DNA of 64,000 nucleotides from Chamaesiphon sp. (GCA_965246715.1 CBDFFH010000012.1:64001-128000); one strand, 5' to 3'; shown: positions 18,322 through 39,631, counted from the stretch's first letter. The notes: generated by a model from the sequence alone, not told the origin. Translations and numbers: made by a program.

Positions 18322-19137
18322 TTGGGTGGACATTTGACTGTGATGGCGGTTAGTGGCTATTTATGGGCAATGAATCCATTGGCGATTCCGTGCCTAATCA
18401 TTTATGGATTTAGCTTGGCGGCAATGTTTGCCACTATGCATGAGTGCTGTCACCGAACAGCATTTGCGAATAATCAAGTTAACGATCTCGTGGCTTGGTG
18501 GGCGGGGGTACTATCTTTTTACAACGGTACCTTCTATCGTCGCTATCACAAATGGCATCATCGCTACACCCGCATTCCTGGTAAAGATCCAGAATTGACC
18601 GATCGCACCCCAGATAGTCTATTGAGCTATGGATTGGATTTGAGTGGTGTGTATTGGTGGTGGTGCAAATTGCGGGGGCATAGTCGAATTGCTTTGGGTA
18701 TTATCGATGAATGCGAATATATTCCCGAAACGGCGCGGGTGGAAACAATTCGATCGATTAGGTTACAGTTGTTGGTGTACGCCATCGCGATCGGGGTTTC
18801 TGTAGGATTTGCTCAACCTTGGTTCATTACCTATTGGCTCCTACCACCGATCGTCGGTCAACCAATCCTGCGCTTTATCCTCTTGGCAGAACATACTGGC
18901 TGTAGCCTGGATGATAATTCTTTGACCAATACGCGGACAACTCTCACCTTTGCACCGCTGCGCTTTTTGATGTGGAATATGCCATTCCATGCCGAGCATC
19001 ACTTGTATGCCTCGATTCCGTTCCATGCTTTGCCTGCGGCACACGAACGATTAAACAGTCATTTTACTAACGTCGATCCTGGCTATGTATCGGTCAATCT
19101 GGGTATTATTAGCCAATTGGAATCATTGTGGTATTGA
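18322..19137 (+). CDS. Fatty acid desaturase-family membrane diiron enzyme (probably 5'-truncated)
   Basis: His boxes HECCH, HKWHH, HAEHH; only a TTG start, with protein-like RSNLAGCLR continuing upstream to an in-frame stop at 18277. Confidence 0.8.
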   Translation: MGGHLTVMAVSGYLWAMNPLAIPCLIIYGFSLAAMFATMHECCHRTAFANNQVNDLVAWWAGVLSFYNGTFYRRYHKWHHRYTRIPGKDPELTDRTPDSLLSYGLDLSGVYWWWCKLRGHSRIALGIIDECEYIPETARVETIRSIRLQLLVYAIAIGVSVGFAQPWFITYWLLPPIVGQPILRFILLAEHTGCSLDDNSLTNTRTTLTFAPLRFLMWNMPFHAEHHLYASIPFHALPAAHERLNSHFTNVDPGYVSVNLGIISQLESLWY

Positions 19138-20171
19138 GTAATGCAAAATGTTTGACATTGCCAAACTTTGAGTTGCAATGTGGCGTAACCTTGCCCCAGG
19201 CTGAATTAGTCTATCAAACCTATGGCGAGCTGAATGTCGATCGATCGAATGTCATTATCTACCCGACTTCCTATGGTGCCCAACACACGGATATTGATTG
19301 GCTGATTCGACCCGACGGCATTCTCGATCCGACGAAATGGTTTATTATCATCCCCAATATGTTTGGCAATGGTCTCTCGACCTCACCCAGTAATAATCCG
19401 GCTTGTAGATTGGCCGAGCAGGGTTTTTGGTTTACACATGTAGATAATGTTCGCGCTCAGGCGCAGTTATTAACTCAGGTTTTTGGGATCGATCGATTGG
19501 CAGCGATCTATGGTTGGTCGATGGGAGCGCAGCAAGCATATCATTGGGGAGCGATGTTCCCCGTTGGCGGAGCCGCTGAGAATGAGATTCGAGTGGAACG
19601 GATTGTGGCATTGTGTGGCACGGCGAGAACTACCGACCACAATCGAATTTTTCTCGAAAGCCTACGTTGTGCCCTTACTGCCGATCGAACCTGGACGGGT
19701 CATGGGTTTGACGGGATACCAGAACAGGGCTTTCGGACATTTGCGAGGATCTACGCGAGTTGGGCGGCTTCTCAGGCATTTTATCGAGTAAAAATCTATC
19801 TCCAACTGGGCTATGCATCGCTGGATGATTATCTGTGGCGGGGTTGGGAAGTGGGCTACCGCAAGCGCGATCCGCATAATCTGGTAGCAATGCTGGATAC
19901 CTGGTTGCGCTGCGACATCAGCAATAATTCTATTTATCAAAGCGATATCGATCGAGCATTAGCCTCGATTACAGCCAAAACTCTGGTCATGCCCTCTGCA
20001 ACGGATCTATATTTCACGCCAGCAGACTGCGCTGCTGAAGCTGCGAAGATTCCCGCTGCTCGATATCTGCCCATCCCCTCGATCTGGGGACATCGGGCGG
20101 GCAATCCTTATCAAAATCCTGAAGATGCGGCTTTTATTCGCACTGCGGTGCAAGAGTTGCTAAGCGAATAA
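19128..20171 (+). CDS. Alpha/beta hydrolase, homoserine acetyltransferase (MetX)-like family
   Basis: YQTYGELN, NMFGNGLSTSP, GWSMGA nucleophile elbow, DLYF, WGH; GTG start overlaps the desaturase stop. Confidence 0.87.
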   Translation: MVLSNAKCLTLPNFELQCGVTLPQAELVYQTYGELNVDRSNVIIYPTSYGAQHTDIDWLIRPDGILDPTKWFIIIPNMFGNGLSTSPSNNPACRLAEQGFWFTHVDNVRAQAQLLTQVFGIDRLAAIYGWSMGAQQAYHWGAMFPVGGAAENEIRVERIVALCGTARTTDHNRIFLESLRCALTADRTWTGHGFDGIPEQGFRTFARIYASWAASQAFYRVKIYLQLGYASLDDYLWRGWEVGYRKRDPHNLVAMLDTWLRCDISNNSIYQSDIDRALASITAKTLVMPSATDLYFTPADCAAEAAKIPAARYLPIPSIWGHRAGNPYQNPEDAAFIRTAVQELLSE

Positions 20172-20186
20172 CTCGATCGACTGACT

Positions 20187-21038
20187 TTACTTGTTGGACG
20201 ATGGAGAAAGGGTTACACCTGTCGCGTAGGGACTAATTCCTTTTTCAGCAAGAGTTGCTTCGATCTCTAAGCGTTTGACTTTGAGCTGGTAATCCCGAAC
20301 TAGAGGATCGATTGCTTTGATGTTGATTGCTTCTGCTTCAAGTGTGGCTTTTTTTGCTTGGATTAGTTTGAGCTTAGATGCTTCGTTTGCGGTTGCTGCT
20401 TTAAGGGCAGATTGTTGTGCTAATTGGTCATTAAAGGATTTGCCGAAGTCTGCAATGCCAGTAATTCTCACCTCTTGAATACGAACCATTTTGCCATATT
20501 CTTTTTGGAGAGCTGCCTTTACTTTTTCCGCAACATCAGGGAGGTTAGAGTTGAAAGTTGCAGGATCTAAACCTGCACCAACTTGGATAATTGCATTTTG
20601 AGTCGAAGCATATAAGTTTTGAGATTTAAAATGCTCTTCATCAACTCTCAAGACTTTAGCAACTGTACCAATAGATTCTTGAGTTGGTTCAAATGTAATA
20701 ATCACCTGAATATTAATTGCACCTTTGATATTTTGGGCTGCGAAGTGAATTGATTGATCGATTTCTTTGCCCTGATCTGTTCTTGAAGAATAGTCTACTA
20801 ATTGTTGACCAGTTGAATAAATCAAAACTTTATCAAATGGGCCATAGTTAAATTTACCAGAATAAATATCTACTTTGTCTTTTTCCCCGCCCGAAGCATG
20901 ATAAACTGCTGCAACCTGTCCCGCACTAAGTGTTTCCCAGCTTGTAACTCCGAAAATCGCACCAGAGGAACAAGATGTTGAACTTGTCGCAACTGCTACA
21001 ACTAAAGTTAAAAAACCAATTTTTTTGAAATCAAACAT
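20187..21038 (-). CDS. SPFH/band-7-like putative lipoprotein with C-terminal coiled coil
   Basis: ATG at 21038, signal peptide ending in Cys, VRIQEVRITG strand then Ala/Lys-rich coiled coil. Confidence 0.6.
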   Translation of the reverse strand: MFDFKKIGFLTLVVAVATSSTSCSSGAIFGVTSWETLSAGQVAAVYHASGGEKDKVDIYSGKFNYGPFDKVLIYSTGQQLVDYSSRTDQGKEIDQSIHFAAQNIKGAINIQVIITFEPTQESIGTVAKVLRVDEEHFKSQNLYASTQNAIIQVGAGLDPATFNSNLPDVAEKVKAALQKEYGKMVRIQEVRITGIADFGKSFNDQLAQQSALKAATANEASKLKLIQAKKATLEAEAINIKAIDPLVRDYQLKVKRLEIEATLAEKGISPYATGVTLSPSSNK

Positions 21039-21444
21039 TTTTGTTCGTTCTTTGTAGATAATGTTGAAGTGATTCAAATGGAAAATTTGCACCAAAAATT
21101 AAGTCGTCACTACTATTTTTAAAAGCAAGCTCAATTGAACTTATCTGTTTTGACGTAAGATTTATAAAATAGATTGAATCGATCGATTCATATTCGACAT
21201 GATTACTAGCATCTATAAATTGCTTCAAATATATTTTTTTGCGTTTCCCAGTTTTCAATAATTTTAGCGACAAAAATACATCGCCAACAGGAATACCGAA
21301 CAATAAAGCAATTCTTCCAAAATCTATTATGGGTGCATACCATGTAGCACCATTAACAATATTATTAGGAAGACTAAAGCTACCGATAATTATTCCAAGT
21401 TGGATCGAGGCAATTATTGCCCAATTTTTAGGACTATGCTTCAT
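21031..21444 (-). CDS. Hypothetical small membrane protein (2 TM), coupled to the SPFH gene
   Basis: 137-aa ORF; its TGA overlaps the SPFH start region (ATGTTTGA). Confidence 0.65.
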   Translation of the reverse strand: MKHSPKNWAIIASIQLGIIIGSFSLPNNIVNGATWYAPIIDFGRIALLFGIPVGDVFLSLKLLKTGKRKKIYLKQFIDASNHVEYESIDSIYFINLTSKQISSIELAFKNSSDDLIFGANFPFESLQHYLQRTNKNV

Positions 21445-21714
21445 AGATATTTATCGTCAACGAAAGCACAGACAAATTGTATGTTGCATGTTATCTAAAT
21501 GATTTCCTCTGGTTTTGCTAACAATATTATTATGCCCAAAATCATTGAAAGATATCATCTATTTTATCTAAACAGCAATTGTGTAATATAGGATTGAGCC
21601 ACATAGCTCCGCTATCACTAAGCTAACCAGCTATACACGTCTCTAAATCACTTACCTGCTTAAAATCTCATTTCTTTGCCGTTTTATTCAAATCGTTTGA
21701 TTTCGATCGCTCGA

Positions 21715-21797
21715 GGTATCCGTTACTTTCTGACTTCCTGCACCGATCTATTTGGTACTCAACGCGCCAAGATGGTGCCAGCCCAAGCGCTCGATCT
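21715..21797 (+). repeat. Degenerate duplicate of the 5' end of the adjacent glnT/gmaS-like gene
   Basis: Aligns to ~22007-22090 (atccgttactttctga..caccgatctatttgg..gccaagatggtgccagccca). Confidence 0.85.
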
Positions 21798-21976
21798 CTA
21801 AATATCAAGCTACCACAGCAAATCTACATCGTACATCTCCAATATCCCATCTGCGTACACAGCACCATTCTAACATTCTTAACAGAGTAAGTATTTCAGT
21901 TCATAGCGATCGAATTAGATCGGCGCAGTCACTTATTCTAGAAATTTGACCCGATCGTCGTCTACACCCATCACCT

Positions 21977-22507
21977 ATGCTGCTATCTGAAATCGCTCGC
22001 GATCGCGGGATCCGTTACTTTCTGATTTCCTTCACCGATCTATTTGGCACCCAACGAGCCAAGATGGTGCCAGCCCAGGCGATCGATCTGATGGCAGTGG
22101 ATGGTGCGGGTTTTGCGGGTTTTGCTGCTTGGTTGGACATGACTCCCGCCGATCCCGATATTTTGGCGATGCCCGAGGCCAGTCAAATGATTCAATTGCC
22201 CTGGCAGCCGGATGTAGCTTGGTTGCCAGCGGATGTACTGACGATCGATAGACAACCGCTCAGACAAACACCTCGCTTAGTGCTCAAACGGGTGTTAGAG
22301 CAAGCCGCAGCACGGGGATATCGCGTGAACACAGGGGTAGAGTGCGAGTATTTTTTACTGAGTGCGGATGGGGAAAGGATTTTTGACGGGTTGGATCGAT
22401 CGAGTAAACCTTGCTACGACCAACAAGCATTGATGCGTCGCTTCGATATTATTGTGGGTAACTACATCCGATCGATTACTGCGTGCCTGTTCAATCTAAT
22501 TAATTAG
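21977..22507 (+). pseudogene. glnT: Truncated type III glutamate-ammonia ligase, GmaS-like (N-terminal ~160 aa only)
   Basis: GIRYFLISFTDLFG..RAKMVP, GAGFAGFAAWLD, QLPW, GVECEYF, KPCYDQ; similarity ends near 22455 and the C-terminal catalytic part is absent. Confidence 0.82.
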
Positions 22508-22605: not shown

Positions 22606-22884
22606 ATGCGTCTAATTGCTATCAAAAATCTCCGCAATGAGGCTAGTCGATATCCAGATGCAAAGAAAGCGATTGAAACTTGGTATCTGATTGTAAAGAG
22701 TGCTGATTGGTCTAGTTTAGAAGATGTCCGGCAAGTGTACCGAGATGCTGAATCTGCTGGTAATTTTACTGTTTTCAATATTAAAGACAATAATTATCGC
22801 TTGATTGTGGGAATTAATTATGTAAAAGGGCGAATCTATTTTAAGTACTTTTTGACTCACGCTGAATACGATAAGGATTTTTGA
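22606..22884 (+). CDS. higB: HigB family toxin
   Basis: MRLIA..., VFNIKDNNYRLI, FLTHAEYDK. Confidence 0.9.
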   Translation: MRLIAIKNLRNEASRYPDAKKAIETWYLIVKSADWSSLEDVRQVYRDAESAGNFTVFNIKDNNYRLIVGINYVKGRIYFKYFLTHAEYDKDF

Positions 22885-22888
22885 AAAA

Positions 22889-23293
22889 ATGACCCAAATT
22901 ATTGATTTGAAAGTGTACGGTCAACTCGTTGCCGAAGTAAGCCCAAAGGTAATTGAAACTGAGGATGAGTATGAGCAATTTCTAGCTGTGGCAGAAAGGC
23001 TGACTTTCAAGCAGGTTCAAACACCTGAAGAGTTGGCATTATATGATTTAGTAACGATGTTGGTGGAAACATACGAGGCGAAACATTACCCGATCGATCG
23101 ATCGTCGCCTGTGGAAGTTTTGGAGCATATCATTGAAGCTAGTGGGATCGATCGATCCGATCTATCTGAGATTTTTGGCTCTGGTGATGCTGTGGATCGA
23201 GTTTTGGCGGGACAGGAGTTAATTAATCCCAGTCAGGCGAATGCTTTGGCACACAGATTTAAGTTGTCTCCAGAGATATTCTTGAATACCTGA
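22889..23293 (+). CDS. higA: HigA family antitoxin (HTH)
   Basis: PKVIETEDEY, LVETYE, C-terminal HTH, directly downstream of higB. Confidence 0.88.
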   Translation: MTQIIDLKVYGQLVAEVSPKVIETEDEYEQFLAVAERLTFKQVQTPEELALYDLVTMLVETYEAKHYPIDRSSPVEVLEHIIEASGIDRSDLSEIFGSGDAVDRVLAGQELINPSQANALAHRFKLSPEIFLNT

Positions 23294-24013
23294 AACCATC
23301 CGATCGATTAAAGGTATTCAGCAAGTAAGATCGAGAAATACTATTATTAAGGTACTATAAAAAAATCTATCTATGGCTATTAACACGCTTCCAGAAATAG
23401 TCAATCTACTCAAGGATACACTTCTTGCTGATGCTCAGGTGATGGAGCTAGAAATTCCTGAATCAGAAGATCGAGCTTTTGCCATCCAAATCAATCCTGA
23501 CAATGGGTATGCTGCATGGGATTTAATGTATTGCCAGATTGCTATAACTGGAAGATATCCTGTTATCGTTCAAGCTGATAGTTACTATCCAGTGATGACT
23601 AATGATGGCAAGTATGAGATGTTATTGAAAAATTGGGAAGAGGGTACTAGAGATAGTGATTTTTTTAGTCGCACTTATTATGAAGAAGATCGAAATAGAG
23701 AAGGTGGCGTTGCACCCAATCAAATCATAGAGCGATCGAAATCATTTGACGTAGATAAGTATATTGAAGCAGAAGACGAAGAATTTTTATTATGGCAGTT
23801 TAACGAAGAAGAAATAGAAGATATATTAATAGGAGAGATTGAAAGTCTGGAAGAAAAATATGGTAAAGCACCAGAGATAGAAGAGATGCTAGCAGCACTT
23901 GGATTAACTGACAAAGAATTGGGTGTAACTATTACAGGGGAGGATATCCATGAAGAAAAACTTGAGAGGTGGCTATTTGAATGGGAATTAGCTAATGGAG
24001 ATTACGAAAAAGC

Positions 24014-24840
24014 GGCGTTGCTGGATTAGGATATGATCTAAGGCGATCGAGAGAAGTAACAAGAGCAAATATCTAAATGGAATGTCCTGAATGTAGATCG
24101 TCTAATATCAATAAAAATGGGCGAATAAAGGGAAAGCAGAACCATATTTGTAAAGACTGCGGACGGCAATTTATAGATTGTTATGAAGCACACAGAGGAT
24201 ATTCACCACAAATCAAGCAGAAATGTTTGTCAATGTATGTTAATGGGATGGGATTTCGAGCAATAGAAAGAGTAATGGGTGTGCATAATACAACTGTCAT
24301 GGATTGGGTGAAGCAAGTAGGGGGAAATCTCCCAGATTACTATAATTCAGACCAAATACCAGAAGTTGGTGAGTTGGATGAGTTAGAGACGTTTGTTGGC
24401 TCAAAAAAAACAAGATCTGGCTCTGGACGGCAGTAAATCACTTTCAGATGGGTATTTTAGGATGGGTATTAGGCGACCACAGTGCTAAGACATTTAGACC
24501 GCTATGGGAGAATTTGGTAAGTACATGGAAATGTTATTTTTATGTGACGGATGGGTGGAGGGTCTATCCAATATTTATTCCAGATGGTGACCAAATCGTG
24601 AGTAAAACTTATATGACAAGAGTTGAGGGTGAAAACACTAGGCTCAGACATTACTTAGCTCGATTAAAAAGAAAAACATTATGTTATTCTAAGTGCGAAC
24701 AAATGCTAAAGCATTCTATTAGATTGTTAATTCATTATCTTAAATTTGGTGAAGTACCAACTCCTAATTCAGTTAGTTCTGGCGATCGACGGCACAGATT
24801 ACCTCTCGATCGCCAAATCATATCTTAATCCAGCAACGCC
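24014..24840 (+). mobile_element. IS1-family insertion sequence, 827 bp
   Basis: TIRs ggcgttgctggatt(a)ggatatgat / atcatatcttaatccagcaacgcc; 8-bp target duplication GAAAAAGC at 24006 and 24841. Confidence 0.95.
24077..24828 (+). CDS. IS1 transposase InsAB via -1 programmed frameshift
   Basis: InsA CPEC..CKDC zinc finger and HTH; A8C slippery site at 24403-24411 leads into KNKIWLWTA..TDGW..VEGENTRLRH. Confidence 0.9.
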
Positions 24841-25424
24841 GAAAAAGCTAGTAGTTATGAAGGTACGATTTACGAAAGAGATTGGTTAGGTGGATATTAT
24901 CAACGTCATGGACTTCCTGATTATAGTGAATATGCAATTATTCTATTCCCAACTCAAAATAGTTGGGAAGTCTTAGCTTACATGCATTGGTATGGTTCTT
25001 CAGGATCGGGTAGCGATGGGGCGATCGCTTTTCTCAAGAGATGGCATGATAAATATCAGGCGGAACTAGTATGTCATTTCGGGACAGTATTAAATCTCAA
25101 TGTTGGCAAACTTCCACAAACACCAATGGAAGCATTCAATCTAATGGTCGAGCAATATACACTTTCCGACTATGCAATGCGTCATAATTTTAATATGAGA
25201 GAATATGCTCGCTATCTAATGAAAGTCGATTATTGGTACTTTCACGATCGACCGTAAATCTTCCAGTCTAAATTAATTTGTGAGTTTTGCAGTGACCACG
25301 AGCAAAACCATGCAGAGAAATAACTTCAGTCAATTATTGTCCGATCTCAATCGATCGTTGATTTGGGATGGTTCGATCTGTGGGATGCTTCGATCGATTG
25401 CCCAAAACTTGCCCAATCTAAATG

Positions 25425-26783
25425 CTAGAAAAACTTGAGATATCGCTGAATTTCCCAATCGGAGACGTGACTGTGATACTCTTCCCACTCCTGGGTTTTA
25501 AAGTCGATATAAGTTTTGTACATCAACGATCCCATCACCTTTTCACTGAGTGGATCGGCAGCAAAAGACTCGATCGCACCTTCCAGATTCCGGGGTAAAC
25601 AGCTAATCCCCATCTTTTGCAAATCTGCCACCGAATGCTTATACATATTCTCCGTATGTGGCTCACCCGGATCGAGTCCTTCCCGAATGCCTTCGAGTCC
25701 AGCGGCTAACAGCATTGCGGCTCCTAGATAGGGATTGCTGGCAATATCCGCCGCTCGGCACTCTACCCTGCCCCCGGGTAACGGAATTCTCAGCATATTG
25801 GTGCGATTGTTATTGCCATAGCAGATGTACACGGGTGCCCAAGTAAATCCTGACATACTGCCTCTGGCGATCAGCCGCTTGTAGCTGTTGACTGTCGGTG
25901 CGATCGTCGCACAAATTGCTGGAGCATGGCGCAAAATGCCCGCAATAAACTGGTAGCCTAATTTTGACAAGCCGCAACCGCGCGGATCTTCAGATTCCTC
26001 AAATAGATTCTTGCCCGTCTCAATGTCGGCGAGGGACATATTGTAGTGGGCACCACTGCCTGTGCGATTGGCAAAGGGTTTGGGCATAAAGGTGGCGAAA
26101 AAGCCGTGTTTGCGAGCAATTTCCTTGACCATCAGCCGAAAAAACACCAGTCGATCGGCCATTTTTAGCGCATCGCAGTAAGCGAAATCGGTTTCAAACT
26201 GACCGTTGCCGTCCTCATGGTCGAAGGAATACACATCCCAGCCCATCTGATTCATCGCTTCGACGATCTCCGTCACCCAGGTGTAGTTGTCGAGTAACCC
26301 TTGGATGTCATAACAGGGTTTATCTAGGACATCTCGATCGCTAATCGGGAGCGGTTTCCCTTCAGTAGTCTCCTTGAGCATAAAGAACTCAGTTTCAATC
26401 CCTAAATTGAACTGGAAGCCCATAGCAGCCGCTTCTGCCAGTACCTTTTTCAAAATGCCGCGACAGCAAGCATCAAACGGTTTGCCCTCCAAATAGAGAT
26501 CGCTAGCAAACCACACCACTTCAGGCTTCCAAGGTAAAACGGTGGCAGTAGCCGGATCGGGCATGGCGGCAACTTCTTCATCGCTGACATCTTGCGGCAC
26601 GCCGTCTAAGGCTGCGCCTGTGAACAGTTCCGAGCCTTGCATCATCTGTCCAAAATGTGACAAGGGCACTGCTTTGGCTTTACACATCCCATGTATATCG
26701 ACAAAGCTGGCTAGCGCATACTTGATGCCTTGTGCTTCGAGGGTAGATTTGAGCGATTGGAGTTCGGGTGAGAGTTGAGTCAC
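25425..26783 (-). CDS. glnT: Type III glutamate-ammonia ligase (GlnT/GS-like gamma-glutamyl ligase)
   Basis: GIETEFF, DHEDGNGQFE, FMPKP, GSGAH, NSYKRL, NNRT, ECRAAD...NPYL. Confidence 0.9.
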   Translation of the reverse strand: MTQLSPELQSLKSTLEAQGIKYALASFVDIHGMCKAKAVPLSHFGQMMQGSELFTGAALDGVPQDVSDEEVAAMPDPATATVLPWKPEVVWFASDLYLEGKPFDACCRGILKKVLAEAAAMGFQFNLGIETEFFMLKETTEGKPLPISDRDVLDKPCYDIQGLLDNYTWVTEIVEAMNQMGWDVYSFDHEDGNGQFETDFAYCDALKMADRLVFFRLMVKEIARKHGFFATFMPKPFANRTGSGAHYNMSLADIETGKNLFEESEDPRGCGLSKLGYQFIAGILRHAPAICATIAPTVNSYKRLIARGSMSGFTWAPVYICYGNNNRTNMLRIPLPGGRVECRAADIASNPYLGAAMLLAAGLEGIREGLDPGEPHTENMYKHSVADLQKMGISCLPRNLEGAIESFAADPLSEKVMGSLMYKTYIDFKTQEWEEYHSHVSDWEIQRYLKFF

Positions 26784-27826: not shown

Positions 27827-27918
27827 GAAGATAGATAAATAATGGAGCAATTAAATAAATAAGATGCAGCTTAAATCCTGAAAATAGAGCTAAATACTGG
27901 ATCGATTTCAGTAATAAA

Positions 27919-29658: not shown

Positions 29659-29662
29659 CTCC

Positions 29663-30478
29663 TTACTCCTGGCGCATGACTTGCAGAACCTGTCGTTTAA
29701 TCTCGATAAACTCTGGTGACAACTTGATCTCAAGTTCGCGATGTTCGGGTAGATGGATGGGAATCTCGCTCTTAACCTGACCCGGACGACAACTCAATAC
29801 ATATATCCGTTGGGACAGATAGATAGCTTCCTCAACATCGTGAGTAATCATCAGTACCGTCACAGGGGTTTTCGACCAGAGTTCTAGTAAAAATTCTTGC
29901 ATCTGTTCTTTGGTTTGAGCGTCCAAGGCACCAAATGGTTCGTCCATCAATAGCACAGCAGGTTCGTTCGCTAAGGCTCTGGCGATCGCTACCCGCTGTT
30001 TCATCCCACCTGATAACTGCTTGGGATAACTATGGGCAAATTTTTCTAGCCCCACCACATTCAGGAAGTAACCAACCTTGTCCCGCCGATCTGCTTTAGA
30101 CATGTGCTGAAATTGCAACCCAAAGGCAATATTCTGGGCAACTGTCAACCAGGGATAGAGCGTATAACCTTGAAACACCATGCCGCGATCGGAACCAGGT
30201 TTACCCGTGACCGATCGACCATCAACTAATACCGCTCCAGATGAAGGTGGCGTAAGTCCAGCGATAATATTGAGCAAAGTTGATTTGCCACAACCAGATG
30301 CTCCGACTAGGCAAATAAATTCTCTGGGGAAGATTTCAAGATTGATATCTTGCAGCACTGTTAACTGCTGACTGTCTCGGATGAGATAGGATTTGGAAAG
30401 ATTCTCAACCGCTAGTTTTGGGGCTTGGCGATCGGGTAACTTGAGGGCAATATTTTGGGCGAGTGTGCTGCTGTTCAT
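29663..30478 (-). CDS. ABC transporter ATP-binding protein (SsuB/TauB/NrtD-like)
   Basis: GASGCGKST, LSGGMKQR, LLMDEPFGALD, ITHD. Confidence 0.95.
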   Translation of the reverse strand: MNSSTLAQNIALKLPDRQAPKLAVENLSKSYLIRDSQQLTVLQDINLEIFPREFICLVGASGCGKSTLLNIIAGLTPPSSGAVLVDGRSVTGKPGSDRGMVFQGYTLYPWLTVAQNIAFGLQFQHMSKADRRDKVGYFLNVVGLEKFAHSYPKQLSGGMKQRVAIARALANEPAVLLMDEPFGALDAQTKEQMQEFLLELWSKTPVTVLMITHDVEEAIYLSQRIYVLSCRPGQVKSEIPIHLPEHRELEIKLSPEFIEIKRQVLQVMRQE

Positions 30479-30731: not shown

Positions 30732-31709
30732 TTGAAAATGTCACCTAGTAACAAAAACACTGCGGCAATTGCCTATACCTTCACTGCATATGTTCTCGGC
30801 ATTCTGTCGATCTGCTCTCCATCCTGGCAACTGAATGCACTTGGAGTAATCGCGATCGTCCATAGTTTAGTCACCGCCACCAATTTGGCGCACGAATTTA
30901 TTCACGGCAACATTTTCAAAGATCGCACAGCCAACGCTTGGTGGGGGCAGTTGATGACCCATCTGAATGGAGCTTGTTATGCTCCCTGGGAAAACTTGAC
31001 CGATTATCACCTCAACCATCATCTAGATCGGGCGGATGTGGTGAGATTGGATGCGATCGATTACATGAAACAGCTCCATCCCGTGCAGCGATCGATTTAT
31101 GTGGCGTTGGAGTGGTTGTACTTTCCCATCCTAGAGATGGATCTGCGCTGGCAGATTATTCTCGACCCCTGGCTGGATGAGAGCAAGCGATCGCGATTAG
31201 GCCGAAATTTGTTGCTCATCAGCTATCGGACTCTGGCCTTTAGTATCTTGGCCTGGATCTCGTGGCAGGCTGTTTTACTTTATTTTCTCGCCTATATTTC
31301 GTTTGTAAATGTGATGCGATTTGTGGATGCATTCCAGCACACTTATGAGTATGCGTTACCAGGACAGGAGTTAATTAAACGCGATCGTACATACGAGCAA
31401 GCCAACACTTTTTCTAACTTAGTATCCGTTCGATCTCCGTGGCTGAATTTGCTCTTGCTCAATTTTGGCTATCACAATGCCCATCACCACAACATGAGTT
31501 GTCCGTGGCACGATTTACCAGAATTACATAACAAGCTTTATGGGGATAGCGATCGCAATGTAATACCTCTATCTCAGCTAGTTTTCAACTATCATCGCTT
31601 TCGGATCGATCGATTATTTAATGGCCAAGGTGAGGTAAATACAGCAGCAGGCATCGATTTAAATAATTTTATTGGTGGTGTCACCGTTTCATTTTTGACT
31701 CCGCCATAA
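30732..31709 (+). CDS. Fatty acid desaturase-family membrane diiron enzyme
   Basis: His boxes HEFIH, HLNHH, HNAHH; divergent from the ABC operon. Confidence 0.87.
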   Translation: MKMSPSNKNTAAIAYTFTAYVLGILSICSPSWQLNALGVIAIVHSLVTATNLAHEFIHGNIFKDRTANAWWGQLMTHLNGACYAPWENLTDYHLNHHLDRADVVRLDAIDYMKQLHPVQRSIYVALEWLYFPILEMDLRWQIILDPWLDESKRSRLGRNLLLISYRTLAFSILAWISWQAVLLYFLAYISFVNVMRFVDAFQHTYEYALPGQELIKRDRTYEQANTFSNLVSVRSPWLNLLLLNFGYHNAHHHNMSCPWHDLPELHNKLYGDSDRNVIPLSQLVFNYHRFRIDRLFNGQGEVNTAAGIDLNNFIGGVTVSFLTPP

Positions 31710-31749: not shown

Positions 31750-31842
31750 TTAATGTTAATTCTAGTTAAGGCTATTTGCTTCGTTCTAGTATCGCCAACG
31801 ATTTCAGTGTCTAGGCTCTTCATTATCCCGAACTGATGTTAA
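31750..31842. mobile_element. Internally deleted, inverted copy of the 15256-15434 MITE-like element
   Basis: Both ~45-bp arms align to the reverse complement of the 15.3-kb element; the central hairpins are missing. Confidence 0.7.
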
Positions 31843-34800
31843 TTAGGTTTCAATGCAATTAATACTTGTCCGGTAGACACCATTTGTCCTGGCTGACAAT
31901 AAACAGCCTCGATCGATCCCGCTTCATTAGCCTCGATCGTCATTTCCATTTTCATCGCTTCGAGGATGACTAGTCGATCTCCTGACTTCACCACATCGCC
32001 TGGTTTTACTAACACCTGCCACACATTTGCAGTTAAATGAGCATTAATTGGCGTACAGTTGGGCGGTAGATCTAGTTTTGGGGCGATCGGAGCGGGTTCT
32101 GGTTCGATCGATTGTCTGGTAAATTCTCCAGCAGCTTCCCAGGCAGTTCGTTCAGCTTGAAATGCGGCTTGTTGAGTATGTTTAAACTTCGCAATATCAG
32201 CGGCATTAGTGGTGAGAAATTGCTGGTATTCAGCTAGGCTAAATGTTGTTGCTTCAATCTTTAACTTCACCCGTCCATAAATCAGATCTTCGCGATATTG
32301 CAATAATTCGGCGGGAGAAACTGGGAAATATCTAATCCGATCGAAGAAGCGTAATAACCACGGTTTAGTAAAGTCCGCCGTCTGCCGATAACGATTCCAA
32401 ATCGGCACCGTGCGCCCGACAAATTGATAACCACCTGGCCCTTCCATGCCATAAATACACATATATGCACCACCGATACCGACGGCATTTTCTGGTGTCC
32501 AAGTGCGGGCGGGATTGTATTTCGTAGTAACTAGTCGGTGGCGCGGATCGATCGGAGTAGCGACTGGTGCGCCGAGATAAACATCGCCCAATCCCAACAC
32601 TAAATAGCTGGCAGCAAAGACAATTTGGCGGACGGCTGCGATCGAATCCAAGCCATTAATCCGGCGAATGAATTCGATATTGCTCGGACACCATGGGGCA
32701 TCGGCACGAACGGATTGGATGTATTTATCGATCGCTAGTTGGGTCGAATCATCATCCCAGGATAGGGGTAAATGCACGATCCGCGTGGGGATGGTTAACT
32801 GGTCGATACTTGGTAAATTTGCTCTAGCAATTGTTAACAGATCGAGTAATTCCTGTTCAGCTAAGACTCGACTATCGTAGTGAATTTGGAGCGATCGAAT
32901 GCCTGGAGTAAGATCGATAATTCCTTCAATGGGATTGGCTTTCAACCATTCCATTAAGGCGTAAATCTGAAATCGGAGATTCAGATCGAGAACTAATTCA
33001 CCATATTCAATTAAGAGATATTTATCACCCGATCGACGGTAGGTGGTGAGGTTGTCACTAAGAGGTAATTTATCTACTAATAATACTTGCTCTGGAGTAT
33101 CATCTCTTGCTTCAGATACGAGTGTGTCAATCTCCCGATCTTGGGCGAGTTCTAGGGCATTGGCACGCTCGATCGATATAGCTTGAAATCGAACTTTATC
33201 GCCTGGTTTGAGTTGACCAATTTTCCATAATTCCGCTTGAACGATTGTCGCGGGACAGACAAAACCGCCTAAACTAGGGCCATCGTGAGCGAGAATAATC
33301 GGCATATCGCCAGTAAAATCGACAGTCCCGATCGCGTAAGCATTATCATGGATATTCGAGGGATGTAATCCCGCCTCGCCGCCATCTGTCCTCGCCCAAA
33401 CTGGTTTGGGGCCGATCAGTCTAATGCCCGTCCGTGCTGAATTGTGATGAATTTCCCAATCGTTAGCGAAGAACATCTCAATATCTTCAGCTGTAAAGAA
33501 ATCCGGCGCACCGTGGGGGCCATAAATCACCCCAATTTCCCAGCGATCGGGATATACTGGAATCAGTTCAGGAGCTAGACTTTGAGGCGAAACCCTGCTA
33601 GCTGCAATCGCTCCATCCCCCCGCCTCTCCATCCCCCCATCTCCTGCAAAATGCAGCACATCCCCCGCACGTAAAATCCGCCCCCCGTGCCCGCCAAATT
33701 GACCGAGGGTAAAGGTGGATTTGCTACCCAAATAATCTGGAACATCGAAGCCGCCAGCAACGGTGAGATAGCTTCTATAGCCGTTTCCTTTAATGCTTGC
33801 TAGTTTTAATATGCTACCTTTTTTAACATTAATAACTGTCCACCACGGCACAGGTGCGCCGTCCAAGGTGGCTGACATCTGCGCTCCCGTCAGACAAATC
33901 GATCGATCGCAATTGAACCGGATTTTTGGCCCCGATACCGTACATTCCAAGCCAGCGGCATCTGGAGGGTTATTTAACAGTCGGTTCCCTAGCCTAAATG
34001 CGAGATGGTCGATCGGGCCAGATGGCGGTACGCCGACATCCCAGTAACCGATTCGCCCTGGATAATCTTGAATGGTGGTCTGGATGCCAGGATCGAGGAT
34101 ATCGATCGATCGCGGTTGATAATTGAGGGTATTTAAAAACTTTGTGTGGACTCTTCCGGCTTGATATTCGGGTTGAGAAATAGCTTGAAATAGGTAATCG
34201 AGATTGGTTTCAATTCCGGCGATCGCCGTGTTTTTTAGAGTAGTTTGAAGTTTGGCAATCGCACTTTCTCGATCGATGTCATGCACTAAGACCTTTGCTA
34301 ATAATGGGTCGTAATAAGGCGTGACTTCAGTGCCCGCTGCAATCCAACCATCGACACGTACATCATCAGGAAAATTTACAGCGGTTAATAATCCCGCACT
34401 CGGTTGGAAATTATGGTTAGGATCTTCGGCATAAATTCGGACTTGAATTGCATGTCCTTGGGGCTGATATTGGTAATTAGTTAAACCCAGATCTTCCCCC
34501 GCTGCTAATCGCACCATCCACTCCACTAAATCGATATTGCCGACTAATTCGGTCACGCCATGTTCGACTTGGAGGCGCGTATTTACCTCCAAAAAATAGA
34601 ACTCCTGACTATCGACATCGACGATAAATTCTACTGTACCAGCCGATCGATAGTTGACAGCTTTACCTAATTTCACAGCAGCAGCATAGAGTTGCGATCG
34701 CAAGTTATCATCGATACCTGGCGCGGGGGTTTCTTCGACTACTTTTTGATTCCGCCGTTGCAGCGAACAATCCCGTTCTCCCAAGGCAATGACATTGCCA

Positions 34801-35450
34801 TTACCATCACCAAAGATTTGGACTTCAATATGTCTAGCTCGATCGAGATAACGCTCCAAAAAAATCCCACCCTGACTAAAATTCTGCCTACTCAAGCGAT
34901 CGACTCGATCGAATGCTGCGGCTAAACTATCGGCATCGCGACAAATTTCCATCCCAATCCCGCCACCGCCAGCGGTACTTTTGAGCATGACTGGATAGCC
35001 AATCTGGGAGGCGATCGTTTCGGCTTGTGCTAGACTCTCCAGTAATTCACTACCAGTTAACATCGGAATGCCATTATCAGCCGCGATCGATCGGGCGGTA
35101 TGTTTGAGTCCAAATTGTTGTAATTGGGCTGGTGTCGGGCCGATAAAGGCGATCTGAGCGGCTTCACAAGCTACTGCAAACTTGGCATTCTCACTCAAGA
35201 AGCCATAGCCAGGATGGATGGCATCTACACCCATCTGTTGGGCGACTTCGAGAATGCGTACCCAGTTGAGATAACTTTCGGCAACAGGGGATGCGCCGAT
35301 ACAAATGGCTTCGGTGGCGAGGGTGGCAGCGGGGGTGTAGATGTCGGCTTCGGAATAGACGGCAACGGAAGGAATGTTGAGATGGTTGAGGGTGGTGAGG
35401 ATTCTCACCGCGATCTCGCCACGATTGGCAACTAGGATCTTTTTGAACAT
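31839..35450 (-). CDS. uca: Urea carboxylase family enzyme, probably guanidine carboxylase
   Basis: Biotin carboxylase domain ([21 protein letters not shown]), CT domain ([24 protein letters not shown]), biotinyl EAMKM. Confidence 0.95.
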
Positions 35451-35578: not shown

Positions 35579-36484
35579 ATGGCGCAATACAAGCACGATC
35601 GCTTTTTTAAGTTCTATATCCAGTCTCTCTACAAAACCAAAGGTGATACTCAACAAAATATTCAAGTTCGTAACGATGAAGATCTAGAAATCGATTTGAT
35701 GTTTATCAGTCAGCCAGGAAATGAAGGATGGCAGCAGGAAGACTTAGGCTTGTTCGACCTGTTAATGCAAGAACATCAAACGATTATTGTCGAGCATTAC
35801 AGCGGTTACTTGAACGAAATGGATATCCATAAGTCTATTACCCGAAAAAATTTATATTGGGAGCCAAAGTATAAAGAACAGTTAGAAATTGCCAGAGTCG
35901 ATCGGCAGTTGACAAAATCTCAGAGACTATCTCAAGAGTCATTAGACAAAATCGAGCAGCAAAATCCATTTACCTGGGTTCTCACAGTTAATTGCAGTGA
36001 GAATATCCTGAAGGCTTGTAGTGCTCAACCCGATCGAGAGTTGGGCGTGGGAGTGTATCGACTCATTCCGTTCTTGAGGATGGGCATTGTGGTTATCGAT
36101 AGATTGCCAGATAGTGAGGAAACTTTGTGGTTGAAAATGTTGGGAGATAAGGAATCTGCTCGGATAGCGTTTGGTGCTATCGATCGGTTGTCTTCCGACC
36201 GCAGGGAGAAAAATGATATAATCAAAGCATGTGTCAAGTATTGCGTTTATTTACGAGATGTACCTGTCGATAGCCTAACTTTAGAGGAGCAAGATTTTAT
36301 GAAAACGATGGCAGAAATCGATGCTTGGTATGATGAAGAAATTCATAATGCCGAACTTAGAGGTAAAAGAGAGGTCGCTCTGAAAATGATTCAGGAAAAT
36401 ATACCTTTAGAAATAGTTGTTCGTATGAGTGGATTTACAATCGAGCAACTTCAAGAAATGCAAGCTGAGAGTGGCAATAACTAA
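35579..36484 (+). CDS. Rpn-like / PD-(D/E)XK-type hypothetical protein
   Basis: N-terminal HDRFFK, EIDLMF..VEH; Rpn-type tail KREVALKMIQENIPLEIVVRMSGFTIEQL. Confidence 0.65.
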   Translation: MAQYKHDRFFKFYIQSLYKTKGDTQQNIQVRNDEDLEIDLMFISQPGNEGWQQEDLGLFDLLMQEHQTIIVEHYSGYLNEMDIHKSITRKNLYWEPKYKEQLEIARVDRQLTKSQRLSQESLDKIEQQNPFTWVLTVNCSENILKACSAQPDRELGVGVYRLIPFLRMGIVVIDRLPDSEETLWLKMLGDKESARIAFGAIDRLSSDRREKNDIIKACVKYCVYLRDVPVDSLTLEEQDFMKTMAEIDAWYDEEIHNAELRGKREVALKMIQENIPLEIVVRMSGFTIEQLQEMQAESGNN

Positions 36485-36574
36485 TTGTCAAGCTGAGGGT
36501 ATTTGTCATCGTATTAGTATATGTTGTATCAATTTTCTTAAATTGTAATCATTAAAACAGTAAAAATTAAACTC

Positions 36575-37084
36575 ATGAAACAAATTGGAGATCTTCAATC
36601 CGAAGCAATCGATGAGCATAAAAAGCGATTTTCCTGCTCATGTGAGTCAACAGTTTTACGCACCCGCGAGATCAGAGGTGGGGCGAAGCAGTATGTCTAT
36701 CAATGTGTCAGATGCGGAGAGGTTAGTTCTCAACCTGTAGCTAAGGTAAAGGCGTTAGAAATATGTGGCGGCAGCGAACCGCCTGAAATAGATACATCAC
36801 TTCGAGAGAACTGGAGAAAGTCAGAATCTGAAGAACGAGCTAATCTAAATGAAAGAACAAGGAATGTGTTTTGGTCTGGCTACACAGAGTATCTTAAATC
36901 TCCTGAGTGGGGCAAACGGCGACTCCTCGTTTTTGAAAGATCGAATGGCGTTTGTGAAGGCTGTGGAATGCAGCCTGCTACACAAGTCCATCATCATTCG
37001 TACAAGCATGTTGGCAATGAATTTCTCTTTGAACTAGCAGCAATTTGCGACTCTTGCCACGAACGCTTTCATTCTGAAGAATGA
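36575..37084 (+). CDS. HNH endonuclease with N-terminal zinc ribbon
   Basis: CSC...CVRC; YLKSPEW..RR, CEGC, VHHHSY, CDSCH. Confidence 0.8.
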   Translation: MKQIGDLQSEAIDEHKKRFSCSCESTVLRTREIRGGAKQYVYQCVRCGEVSSQPVAKVKALEICGGSEPPEIDTSLRENWRKSESEERANLNERTRNVFWSGYTEYLKSPEWGKRRLLVFERSNGVCEGCGMQPATQVHHHSYKHVGNEFLFELAAICDSCHERFHSEE

Positions 37085-37334: not shown

Positions 37335-37988
37335 CTACACATGATTTGGGGCATCCCAAATCACCAGGCGAATTGGCGTGGGATTATAGGCATTGCAGGG
37401 ATTATTTACCTGAGGACAATTGGAGATTAATACCATCACATCCATCTCCGCTTGTAGCTCGACAATTTTACCAGCTTCCGAAATACCATCCACAATTTCT
37501 AAACTACCATCAGCACTTACAGGCACATTCATATAGAAATTAATATTACTCACCAAATCTCGCTTATTCATCTCATACTTACTCAATTCTAGTAAGTAGT
37601 TTTCCACACAGGCATGGAGATGTTTTTTGTGCAATCCATACCGAACAGAATTACTCTCCATACTGCACGCACCGCCGACGGTATCGTGACGACCGCAGGT
37701 ATCATTAATCACGGTCATCATTACATTCCCTTCATTGGAAATAATTTTGGTGCCAGTAGTGATGAAGATATTACCTTGACGAACGATCGTGTCTGGCGCA
37801 CTATAACGCTCGGATGGATCGTGAGCGTTATAAAATAGGGTATCGACTGCTTGATTGCCTTGGAGATCGATAATGCGAAGAGTCTGCCCAACTTTGACGA
37901 CTCGCGACCAAGGTTGACGCGATGGAATTACTTCATCATAGATAGCATTAGCCGGATCGAGTGTTGGGTTGGAAATTGTAGAAACCAT
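37335..37988 (-). CDS. cgdB: Carboxyguanidine deiminase subunit B (urea carboxylase-associated, DUF1989)
   Basis: GNQAVD, DTCGRHDT.GGAC, INFYMNVP, SNCPQVNNPCN. Confidence 0.9.
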   Translation of the reverse strand: MVSTISNPTLDPANAIYDEVIPSRQPWSRVVKVGQTLRIIDLQGNQAVDTLFYNAHDPSERYSAPDTIVRQGNIFITTGTKIISNEGNVMMTVINDTCGRHDTVGGACSMESNSVRYGLHKKHLHACVENYLLELSKYEMNKRDLVSNINFYMNVPVSADGSLEIVDGISEAGKIVELQAEMDVMVLISNCPQVNNPCNAYNPTPIRLVIWDAPNHV

Positions 37989-38128
37989 GTTTATATTTAG
38001 GGTTAGTAATATTAGTAGATATTGGGATCGATAATATGGATCTCTAGGGGCGGGTTTATGCCATTAATATCGACTGTACTAAAAATTCAATTCAAACCCG
38101 CCCAACCCACACATCAATTCAAAACTGC

Positions 38129-38857
38129 TTAATCCTGTGCAAATAACGCATCGGTGTTGACAAATCCCCGCACAACTTCAGTATTTGCCGTCCGACAAAA
38201 ATCATCAGCCATTGGTGCCGGAGATTTCCAGATTGTTAATTGAATCGGTTGCGGCTTATATTCCGTACTCGGATGCAAAACATGAGGACAATTTGACACG
38301 ATCGCGAGGACATTCATTTCCGCACGCAAATCGATATAACTACCTACTTTTTCGCAAGATCGATCGTATTGCAAATCTCCATCGGGGGAGACAGCAACGC
38401 GACTAAAGAGATTGATATTCGGCATCAAATCTTTGCGGGTTAAACCCCGTTTTCCCAAGGCTTTGAGAAAGTTATTACGCGAGTTATTGAAGTCACCATC
38501 GCCATATTTAGCGGTATTACTTGCCGCATTGCTACAGCCGCAAATTAGGTCGTGACAGCCAGATGTATCGCTAGTAATCGAGCACAAAATTCTGCCCATA
38601 TCCGAGTACATCACCATCCCTTGTTTCAGGAAGGCATTGAACTGGATTTTGGCTGTATCCGCGACGTTTAAGCGTTCGATCGGACTGTCGGCATTGTAGC
38701 AAACGAAGGATACGCCATGCGAGCCAGCTAGATCGGTAATGCGGAGCGTGTTACCGCGCTTGATGATGCCGTGCCAATAGTCGCCTCCTGGCAACTTTTC
38801 ATCAAGAAGGATGAGGCTAGAGTCAATTTCTGACTGTGGAGCTAGAGTCGTATTCAT
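38129..38857 (-). CDS. cgdA: Carboxyguanidine deiminase subunit A (urea carboxylase-associated, DUF1989)
   Basis: ERLNVADTAKIQ, SDMGR, HD, NLFSRV, SNCPH; first gene after the riboswitch. Confidence 0.9.
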   Translation of the reverse strand: MNTTLAPQSEIDSSLILLDEKLPGGDYWHGIIKRGNTLRITDLAGSHGVSFVCYNADSPIERLNVADTAKIQFNAFLKQGMVMYSDMGRILCSITSDTSGCHDLICGCSNAASNTAKYGDGDFNNSRNNFLKALGKRGLTRKDLMPNINLFSRVAVSPDGDLQYDRSCEKVGSYIDLRAEMNVLAIVSNCPHVLHPSTEYKPQPIQLTIWKSPAPMADDFCRTANTEVVRGFVNTDALFAQD

Positions 38858-38910: not shown

Positions 38911-38955
38911 TAAGCCGAGGAAATCCACAGCAAAGCTGAAGTGGTTCTCCCGGGC
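38911..38955 (-). terminator. Riboswitch expression-platform hairpin
   Basis: Minus strand GCCCGGGAGAACCAC..GTGGATTTCCTCGGC-TTA pairs the aptamer 3' tail; U tract is short. Confidence 0.6.
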
Positions 38956-39057
38956 TTTTATCCCGCCGTGTGACCGAATTAGTAGTGTCAATTCACTCCC
39001 AATCGGCGGCTTCTCTCGGACCAGTCATCGAAGATACTCGATCGGAACCCTAGAAGC
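38947..39057 (-). ncRNA. Guanidine-I (ykkC-yxkD) riboswitch aptamer
   Basis: Minus strand GCTTCTAGGGTTCCG..CTGGTCCGAGAGAAGC..ACACGGCGGGATAAAAGCCCGGGAG, upstream of cgdAB. Confidence 0.95.
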
Positions 39058-39090
39058 AATCCTGACTTGATATTTAGTTTAATGTCACAG

Positions 39091-39132
39091 ATCTTAGCAA
39101 CCCATGCTGGGATGAAAAGTATCTGACAATAC
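39091..39132 (-). promoter_or_regulatory. NtcA-activated promoter (GTA-N8-TAC-N22-TAN3T)
   Basis: GTATTGTCAGATAC (39132-39119), exactly 22 nt, then TAAGAT (39096-39091) preceded by TGn. Confidence 0.82.
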
Positions 39133-39205
39133 CGTTATTTATTTGTCAATTAGTGGCTACCGATCGAATCCAAGCTGTCGATCGACAATTTTGCAAACTG
39201 ATATT

Positions 39206-39631
39206 TTAAACCTGAACTCGATCGATCTCTACCGATTTAATATAGTTTCGCCATCCACCAAACTTAGTGATTTCTAGTTGTCCTTCACACAAAAATGGTT
39301 CGCCCAGAACGCCTAAAACTTCAGTACGATCGGCTAATTTAACTTTACCAATACATAATCCAGCGGGTTCTTGTTGCAAGATTTTGGCTAGTCCAGCTAA
39401 AGGTACCGACCAGATTTCTAGTTCGATTGATTCTCCCCCAGTACTCACTCTCATCATCGCCGGATGACGATCGTCGATCGACCACAACCGGTAAATCGGT
39501 GTGGTCGCGATTTCGCGGACAAATACTGCGCCAACCTGTTGCAAGTTATCATTTAGCTCCAATCCGCGCATTAAAGTTCCATTCACAGCTAATTCACAAG
39601 TACCTGACATATTTTCAATTTTAGATATCAT
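39206..39631 (-). CDS. Standalone allophanate hydrolase C-terminal-like / gamma-glutamylcyclotransferase-fold protein
   Basis: LAVNGTLMRGLELN, TTPIYRL, IELEIW, EPAGLCIGKVKL, ITKFGGWRNY. Confidence 0.82.
   Translation of the reverse strand: MISKIENMSGTCELAVNGTLMRGLELNDNLQQVGAVFVREIATTPIYRLWSIDDRHPAMMRVSTGGESIELEIWSVPLAGLAKILQQEPAGLCIGKVKLADRTEVLGVLGEPFLCEGQLEITKFGGWRNYIKSVEIDRVQV

Follow-up and report, generated by a model that had tools for sequence, protein, structure and literature searches.

The DNA considered here, 64,000 nucleotides of Chamaesiphon sp. (GCA_965246715.1, CBDFFH010000012.1:64001-128000; hereafter the window), carries between positions 18322 and 39631 an island of genes related to organic nitrogen, and the question it raises is whether these genes constitute one catabolic pathway. 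An interpretation made from the sequence alone, the sequence-only reading, had proposed that they do: a module of desaturase, GlnT-type ligase, metallo-beta-lactamase-fold (MBL) hydrolase and ATP-binding cassette (ABC) importer genes would take up a nitrogen-rich compound, open it, capture the released amine as a gamma-glutamyl amide and pass the guanidine or urea moiety to the carboxylase Uca. Every gene of the island was examined, searches of the whole cyanobacterial genome were added (G000; 6.1 Mb, 99.8% complete, the stretch lying on contig C12), and co-occurrence was then followed across other genomes. Family tests bore out the riboswitch, cgdA, cgdB and uca, the two desaturase-fold genes (desA and desB), the alpha/beta hydrolase, one full ligase and the importer together with its MBL gene, all of which are real. 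When open reading frames from 80 desB loci and 34 ligase loci were clustered, the genes beyond the guanidine operon nevertheless split into module B (desA, PRK07581-family hydrolase and ligase) and module C (ATPase, MBL, permease, substrate-binding protein (SBP) and ligase, with desB), and the two ligases of the window fall in different well-supported clades of a quick IQ-TREE run, in which the deep branching among ligase clades was left open. The island is, with high probability, a mosaic of a guanidine-carboxylase operon (unit A) and modules B and C rather than a single pathway, and its local copy has decayed. As a whole it is best explained as three nitrogen-scavenging units, of which B would be a methylamine route and C linked to guanidine, a reading to which we give a probability of roughly 0.55. 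Both modules are widespread and appear to be undescribed, a literature search made mostly without subscription papers and without supplements having returned no description of either.

The methylamine part of this reading draws on the distribution of desA. Ligases over the TIGR03105 cut-off were present in 202 of 401 sampled cyanobacterial genomes (class-level draw). In an initial panel, 28 ligase-positive genomes (26 over the cut-off, plus G009 and G001, the ligase gene of the latter being split in two at contig ends and scoring under the cut-off) were compared with 51 ligase-negative ones picked by handle; desA occurred in 23 of the former and three of the latter, and PRK07581 exceeded its cut-off in 23 and none, respectively. 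A query for mgsC came from an operon next to gmaS that also encodes GATase, GXGXG and sarcosine-oxidase-type proteins, and it matched in exactly the five ligase-positive genomes without desA. A similar split appeared in a second test on the first 80 of 185 new ligase matches in handle order, where desA was found in 53 genomes and mgsC in 24, one having both and four neither; the desA-like gene of the single genome with both (G440) is only 40% identical, while the four with neither carry only the module C ligase, here called T2. Overall, the 108 GmaS/GlnT-positive cyanobacteria, the only group in which the comparison was made, comprise 75 genomes with desA only, 28 with mgsC only, one with both and four with neither, and the two states occur side by side within two genera (g190, g179) and five families (f22, f26, f29, f45, f49). 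In G000 the mgsC query gave only glutamate-synthase-type matches of 27-33% identity, mgsA, mgsB and mgd not having been searched separately.

MgsABC acts downstream of GmaS (PMC7948447), and since desA and mgsC are mutually exclusive, the replacement gene is most likely to act downstream as well. DesA likely replaces MgsABC and Mgd, demethylating gamma-glutamylmethylamide to glutamine, and we hold it reasonably probable that module B acts downstream of GmaS on methylamine. In intact relatives GmaS would join methylamine to glutamate, a known chemistry; the pocket and catalytic residues described for RhGmaS (PMC7948447) are retained in module B, where K30', Y147, Q175, D177, E179, E186, N188, W300 and R312 are identical in 22 of 22 clade rows. 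DesA, probably with electrons from ferredoxin, would then hydroxylate the N-methyl group of gamma-glutamylmethylamide, and the hemiaminal would break down to glutamine and formaldehyde, or to formate via an N-formyl amide. The PRK07581 protein may accelerate this breakdown or take off the formyl group, and glutamine would carry the nitrogen straight into GOGAT. Three loci (L103, L240, L247) have desA-gmaS without an adjacent hydrolase gene, and genome G240 lacks the hydrolase altogether, as expected of a helper step.

The fold of DesA is compatible with such a reaction. The model of an intact ortholog (m75135a41c1aa, predicted local distance difference test score (pLDDT) 93) is a membrane diiron fold, with Z scores of 24.6 to 8xks_K, 12.9 to AlkB (root-mean-square deviation 4.7, 275 aligned residues) and 6.6 to SCD1; a DesA profile run against PDB sequences gave no match at E<=1. 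Orthology with the lipid desaturases DesA/DesB was rejected, the NCBIfam scores being 27-33 against a cut-off of 500. The best structural match, 8xks_K / 8xqw_M, belongs to the chloroplast Ycf2/Orf2971-FtsHi import motor, in which it is a desaturase-like subunit (19% identity). Membrane diiron enzymes acting on non-lipid substrates include AlkB, the rhizopine oxygenase MocD and the arginine hydroxylase GntB, from which DesA nevertheless differs: identity to a "MocD-like" record is about 27%, the GntB model scores 64 bits against a cut-off of 380, and no moc, gnt or ferredoxin/reductase neighbours were seen.

The proposed route shares its first enzyme with the N-methylglutamate pathway, GmaS-MgsABC-MgdABCD (PMC7948447, PMC13390433), and 28 of 108 ligase-positive cyanobacteria have mgsC without desA, whereas in 75 of 108 a desaturase-fold oxygenase, usually with the PRK07581 hydrolase, is present and mgsC was not found. 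A hydroxylase-plus-lyase precedent exists in the MgdH/MgdL demethylation of methylguanidine, which extends a guanidine operon and in which hydroxylation of the N-methyl group is likewise followed by a second protein that speeds formaldehyde release (PMC12508155); the enzymes, a 2-oxoglutarate dioxygenase and a lyase, are however apparently unrelated to those of module B, no gamma-glutamyl step is involved, and the likeness drawn here is one of logic.

Gene context points in the same direction. Among 20 further loci, picked for desA near gmaS, only an occasional GntR regulator is conserved besides the desA-hydrolase-gmaS triad, and a canonical NtcA box stands upstream of desA in 10 of the 20, against 0.06 expected per locus. 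On a Leptolyngbya plasmid the triad occurs by itself, and in L108 it is flanked on either side by frmA and fghA, both over cut-off. In the control panel, Synechococcus elongatus has both the ligase and PRK07581 over their cut-offs.

Module C is tied to guanidine by its neighbours. A guanidine-I riboswitch (RF00442) lies within 10 kb of T2 in 11 of the 33 genomes with a full T2, against none of the 75 other ligases (nearest 11 kb, in G419). In 80 T2 metagenome loci the riboswitch motif was present in 27, gdmH in 13, cgdB in seven and uca in eight, with at least one of these in 31; the same loci contain a uca-type SBP (24), a PRK07581 gene (32), desB (nine), isochorismatase (10) and MBL (four). 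Several arrangements recur: T2 lies inside riboswitch-ABC-T2-cgdAB-uca operons (L173, L175, L177, L178) and, in other cyanobacteria, inside GdmH operons, whose gdmH-like gene matches PDB 7esr/7oi1 (E 3e-240); four of 20 T2-related loci (L255, L256, L259, L260), and similarly L059, show the order riboswitch-ATPase-SBP-MBL-creatininase-like-T2-permease-isochorismatase; riboswitch-SBP-desB-SDR-SDR-creatininase-isochorismatase-ABC precedes T2 in L188, L189, L194 and L195; and desB is directly behind a riboswitch in L066. A neighbourhood analysis, which the sequence-only reading had suggested as a check, thus bore out that the genes co-occur in other genomes, with ABC, MBL, T2 and desB tied to guanidine loci; the supposed link of all extra genes to guanidine holds for module C (riboswitch, GdmH and cgdAB-uca operons), whereas module B showed no link to uca. 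The Synechocystis operon GdmH-GhaAB-ABC has an NtcA box and a guanidine-I riboswitch (PMC12704784) and is of the type in which T2 is inserted elsewhere; gdmH was, in contrast, not found in G000.

Uca lies near desB in six of 80 desB loci, all proteobacterial, adjoins desB in the sister contig L150 and stands beside module C in L152 and L269. Pure chance as the reason for module C lying beside uca was dropped in view of these cases and of T2 in uca operons; the position is a shared inheritance of the genus and is found again elsewhere, without being obligatory. By its gene context module C belongs to the guanidine regulon, and that it handles a guanidine-related compound is the somewhat favoured view, although any named substrate would be doubtful. 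Its partners vary, a Rieske oxygenase or desB being accompanied by an MBL, creatininase-like or BiuH-like hydrolase, all below the named cut-offs except one creatininase, and this variability suggests a substituted or cyclic guanidine without naming it. In the pocket of T2, Gln175, Asn188 and Ala48' of RhGmaS are replaced by Ser, Asp and Thr, respectively, in nine of nine rows, both solved GmaS enzymes having Gln and Asn, while the catalytic D177, E186 and R312 and the Trp flap are kept and the ammonium-binding Asp50' is lacking. T2 would thus gamma-glutamylate an amine that exceeds methylamine in size or basicity, an oxidation would fall to DesB or a Rieske enzyme, the MBL, creatininase-like or isochorismatase-like hydrolases would open the compound, and guanidine would pass to GdmH or Uca; a substituted guanidine, or else an amine set free from such a compound, is the likely substrate of module C.

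Amines are gamma-glutamylated in the PuuA (putrescine), IpuC (isopropylamine) and aniline/naphthylamine pathways, whose gene logic, a glutamine-synthetase-like ligase followed by an oxygenase and then a hydrolase, would fit the present modules. They differ in ligase clade (270 bits with the PuuA model against 650), in that the oxygenase is here a membrane diiron one, and in that the window has no GATase-type gamma-glutamyl hydrolase; a GATase does adjoin T2 in L168-L172 and L174. Three further observations concern desB and this type of operon. In the gammaproteobacterial loci L094, L096 and L097 a series riboswitch-TonB receptor-HpaB-like-NCS1 permease-SBP-desB-isochorismatase-MBL stands beside atzF and a second riboswitch-cgdAB-uca, which looks like a ring-opening catabolism of a guanidine-containing heterocycle. 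Relatives of desB at 40-50% identity occur with dxs/ispG/ispH-like isoprenoid genes (labels by eye) or with two unannotated genes and two-component regulators, the loci of these two recurrent clusters being L074, L077, L081, L086, L089 and L092, and L032, L040, L044, L046, L051, L058, L065, L069, L087 and L088. A group II intron fragment (RF02005; L059:791-1022) immediately precedes the module C operon that the riboswitch leads in L059.

Several findings weigh against the module C part of this reading. No guanidine marker is nearby in 22 of the 33 T2 genomes and 49 of the 80 T2 loci (many contigs are short; 19 of 38 among loci of at least 15 kb), and only eight of 80 desB loci have one, desB occurring also in unrelated clusters. 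PRK07581 genes flank T2 in 32 of 80 loci, mostly without desA, and module C of the window is not itself behind the riboswitch, is transcribed apart and lacks a canonical NtcA box. The alternative that survives best is that T2 acts on guanidine itself, or re-assimilates its ammonium, as an auxiliary glutamine synthetase or in a gamma-glutamyl-guanidine route, rather than on an alkylamine. Several riboswitch-ABC-T2-cgdAB-uca and riboswitch-gdmH-hypA-T2-hypB operons (L173, L175, L177, L178, L165, L166) have no extra gene but T2, four genomes possess T2 with neither desA nor mgsC, and the Asn-to-Asp change renders the pocket more anionic. We consider it unlikely all the same: T2 lacks both the ammonium-binding Asp50' and the flap Glu of true glutamine synthetases, GdmH and Uca degrade guanidine without it, and protonated guanidine is a poor nucleophile.

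For module B, points against the methylamine route are the following. L108 is the sole frmA/fghA-flanked locus among those screened, and G000 has frmA while no fghA match was found in it. Three of the 51 ligase-negative genomes have desA without gmaS, one copy bearing four internal stops. Related genomes are moreover not independent, so that p-values for co-occurrence overstate. Outside cyanobacteria, a DesA-like and PRK07581-like pair exists without GmaS, which means that the pair may have other substrates. In Cupriavidus (L230, plasmid) a DesA-like gene of 38% identity is found with a hydrolase of 46%, an iron alcohol dehydrogenase, rubredoxin, an FAD oxidoreductase and TetR, neighbours that fit a monooxygenase, which is a point in favour of the proposed reaction. 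On a Paroceanicella plasmid (L234) the two genes are likewise accompanied by TetR and an iron alcohol dehydrogenase, GmaS being absent. The pair of L230 and L234 is possibly an O- or N-demethylation system for another substrate.

Such pairs in proteobacteria also lend themselves to a different order of events, in which DesA and the hydrolase act upstream of GmaS and set methylamine or another amine free from a methylated amide or ester of larger size, with gamma-glutamylmethylamide as a dead-end or detoxification product; the closest solved relatives of the hydrolase, 5e4y and 5d6o, are presumably small-acyl esterases, as this would imply. The proposal is improbable, as no importer for a larger substrate was seen travelling with the triad and the complementarity of desA with mgsC, whose product acts downstream of GmaS (PMC7948447), is left unexplained. 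The downstream methylamine route is thus preferred for module B.

No better placed is the single integrated pathway, in which all extra genes convert one imported nitrogen-rich compound whose guanidine or urea moiety goes to Uca. Modules B and C adjoin in the same-genus G001 and in L050, a second GmaS-type ligase is present in 29 of 33 T2 genomes, chains of riboswitch-gdmH-(T2)-ABC-desA-hydrolase-gmaS exist in L127, L183, L184 and L199, and a conversion of methylguanidine to methylamine plus guanidine or urea would engage both modules. Those chains, however, employ GdmH and not Uca; module B is free-standing in most genomes; uca is absent from the 34 ligase loci and was seen in 0/22 loci of the canonical clade; and genomes with a ligase show no enrichment of cgdB (3/28, against 9/51 of those without, p = 0.52). 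In the window itself module B is broken, one of the two ligases of the island being a pseudogene, while module C and uca are intact, and since no allophanate amidase was found either, the originally proposed chain must be incomplete in this genome. In place of the single route stand two modules, each with partners of its own. Incidental clustering of lipid desaturases and unrelated scavenging genes in a rearrangement-prone region, as the IS1, toxin-antitoxin, Rpn and SPFH insertions, the two pseudogene remnants and the several unrelated contexts of desB might suggest, is very improbable, being largely refuted for module B and for ABC-MBL-T2 by the strong linkage that both modules show again and again across many families and by the desA/mgsC complementarity, and could still hold for desB alone.

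Use of methylamine as a nitrogen source has been credited to methylotrophs and heterotrophs, through amine dehydrogenases or oxidases or the N-methylglutamate pathway (PMC7948447). As a tentative synthesis, most ligase-bearing cyanobacteria may use a third methylamine route, N-demethylation by DesA to glutamine, and T2 may at the same time open a gamma-glutamyl branch for methylated or cyclic guanidines. If so, cyanobacteria would themselves consume methylamines and substituted guanidines directly, and the desA-dependent shortcut would be a third aerobic methylamine route as well as a new reaction of the desaturase fold, an amide N-demethylation; T2, for its part, points to an unexplained step in guanidine regulons. 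The main value of the locus lies in the two conserved modules, above all in the desA/mgsC complementarity, which offers a testable new route for methylamine nitrogen, while the window is a poor experimental model because its module B is broken.

The local module B begins with desA (18322..19137, + strand; PF00487), which has the three His boxes of a membrane diiron oxygenase of the desaturase/AlkB fold. Two desaturase-fold enzymes had been recognised in the island, and both desA and desB do match PF00487 with three His boxes, but desA is N-terminally shortened: it encodes 271 residues against about 303-335 in full-length orthologs, an in-frame stop lies just upstream, and the invariant N-terminal residues are missing, orthologs matching only from their own residue 23-30 or so. 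The NtcA box and the divergent GntR gene present in same-genus or close loci (L023/G001, L050, L133) are both gone here, and related strains have additional sequence at 18291/18292, just before desA. The following gene (19128..20171, +) encodes a MekB/CgHle-like alpha/beta hydrolase of the PRK07581 family (NF005757, 474 bits, cut-off 332; Ser129-Asp293-His322 motifs; best PDB matches 5e4y/5d6o). It is MetX-like, as had been noted, with the Ser-Asp-His triad, yet a role as MetX homoserine O-acetyltransferase was rejected on scores below the cut-offs (TIGR01392, 94 bits against 500; NF001209, 89 against 331).

Between the hydrolase and gmaS lie passengers, an SPFH/Band 7 gene (PF01145) and a hypothetical one (20187..21444, -); the SPFH gene has 38% GC and a 92% copy on contig C23. 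A degenerate duplicate of the gmaS 5' end (21700..21798, +; 82% over 33 residues to the fragment downstream) precedes the gmaS pseudogene of the canonical clade (21977..22507, +). The two GlnT-type ligases of the sequence-only reading are accordingly reduced to one full TIGR03105 ligase, T2, the other being a 5' third that covers model positions 2-160 of 435 and is 73% identical to the intact same-genus ortholog over residues 30-186. The 3' part was not found anywhere in G000. An assembly error was rejected as the cause of the break, since a read-derived contig (X1 record 3, 22069-23068) crosses it with no differences. Module B in G000 is probably dead, the break in gmaS being observed and the loss of function following from it by inference. 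Duplicated gmaS 5' ends beside foreign DNA are present both in the window (21700-22507) and in G523 (L242:8548-14971), which suggests that the gmaS 5' end is an insertion site. Downstream, HigB with a likely antitoxin and a DUF4253 gene split by IS1 (24077-24828) occupy 22606..25257 (+; family matches), the position where sister contigs carry isochorismatase, copper amine oxidase and APC permease genes.

Module C follows on the minus strand. T2 (25425..26783) is an intact GmaS-like gamma-glutamyl ligase (TIGR03105, 591 bits against 469.6) of a separate clade with 99% support in the SH-like approximate likelihood ratio test (SH-aLRT); no close T2 was found among PLSDB plasmids at E<=1e-120. It is followed by a NitT/TauT-type SBP (26801..27850; PF09084), 30% identical to that of the same-genus cgdAB-uca cluster, a permease (27919..28815; PF00528), the MBL hydrolase (28882..29733; PF00753, HxHxDH motif) and an ATPase (29663..30478; PF00005). 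The MBL orthologs have about 258 residues and only distant PDB relatives (E>=4e-11). An SsuABC-type importer with an embedded MBL had been read from these genes; the importer is of NitT/TauT type and does hold the MBL gene between permease and ATPase, whereas the SBP is below the SsuA, TauA and uca-SBP cut-offs, and sulfonate import (SsuABC/TauABC) was rejected because SBP, permease and ATPase all fall below the family cut-offs. Divergent from these genes lies desB (30732..31709, +; PF00487, three His boxes), which gave no tblastn match to desA at E<=1e-8 and no PDB sequence match at E<=1, and whose closest named relative (87%) is from a Chamaesiphon metagenome-assembled genome.

The early identification of a guanidine riboswitch, cgdAB and uca was confirmed. 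On the minus strand, unit A comprises the guanidine-I riboswitch (38945-39064; RF00442, 79.4 bits, gathering score 63), the two genes that we take to be cgdA (38129-38857) and cgdB (37335-37988) for carboxyguanidine deiminase (span 37335..38857; TIGR03425 and TIGR03424 over cut-off) and the guanidine (urea) carboxylase gene uca (31839..35450; TIGR02712, 1829 bits, cut-off 1304), and a canonical NtcA box GTA-N8-TAC (39119..39132) lies 55 nucleotides upstream of the riboswitch. Asp711 of the carboxylase aligns with Asn737 of 3va7, the K. lactis enzyme, presumably the specificity position meant by the Asp-versus-Asn rule, which makes it Asp-type. That rule for carboxylase specificity comes from PMC12186494. 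Unit A is an ordinary guanidine carboxylase operon with NtcA box, riboswitch, cgdAB and Asp-type carboxylase.

The gene at 39206..39631 (-), earlier taken for a GGCT-fold protein, is a stand-alone C-terminal domain of allophanate hydrolase, AH_C (PF21986, E 3e-41), present also in the uca clusters of G009 and G010; a gamma-glutamyl cyclotransferase serving module C was accordingly rejected, the gene travelling with uca clusters. An allophanate amidase domain was not found in G000, where the best TIGR02713 matches (226 bits, cut-off 511) are two GatA-like genes. Two near-identical gatA-like genes of G000 lie on separate contigs (C1:5140-6516 and C46:81886-83262). The amidase half was likewise not found in G009, G010 and G211 and is a separate gene in G096 and G135, several cgdAB cyanobacteria thus keeping only the C-domain. 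G000 has ureC (urease), and AH_C with urease might finish the pathway in place of the amidase. A dedicated guanidine ABC importer was not found in G000, the same-genus uca-cluster SBP finding only a 30% match and TIGR03427 69 bits against 334, whereas the guanidine operons of G009 and G010 have their own; the importer of module C might substitute for it here. Compared with the published pathway of riboswitch, importer, CgdAB, carboxylase and allophanate hydrolase (PMC12186494), the riboswitch, cgdAB and Asp-type carboxylase are intact here, while amidase domain and dedicated importer were not found, the C-domain being left and urease present. G010 has a back-to-back pair of guanidine-I motifs in L147, ahead of the SBP gene (8275-9315) and of cgdA (10052-10822); they serve its importer operon and its cgdAB-uca operon, which diverge from each other. 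An Rpn-like gene (weak TIGR01784 match) and an HNH-like reading frame (label by eye, without family match) form an antisense insert between cgdB and uca (35579..37084, +), and G009 and G010 likewise carry antisense insertions at this place.

Passengers make up about 5 kb of the 21-kb island, namely SPFH, HigB with its likely antitoxin, the IS1-split DUF4253 gene, the Rpn-like gene and the HNH-like reading frame, and the window copy is reduced and rearranged relative to the sister contigs L149 and L150 (84-90% DNA identity). In these a Rieske oxygenase gene separates SBP and ligase; an isochorismatase follows, and next, between T2 and gmaS, comes a copper amine oxidase over the NF008559 cut-off (L149:8110-13559, L150:11558-13561); L149 continues with an APC permease and the gmaS 3' part that is absent from G000. 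The Rieske, isochorismatase, amine oxidase and permease genes have no close match in G000. Upstream of the island, the window also encodes a protein of 1483 residues (10645-15096) with, by eye, two alkaline-phosphatase-family domains.

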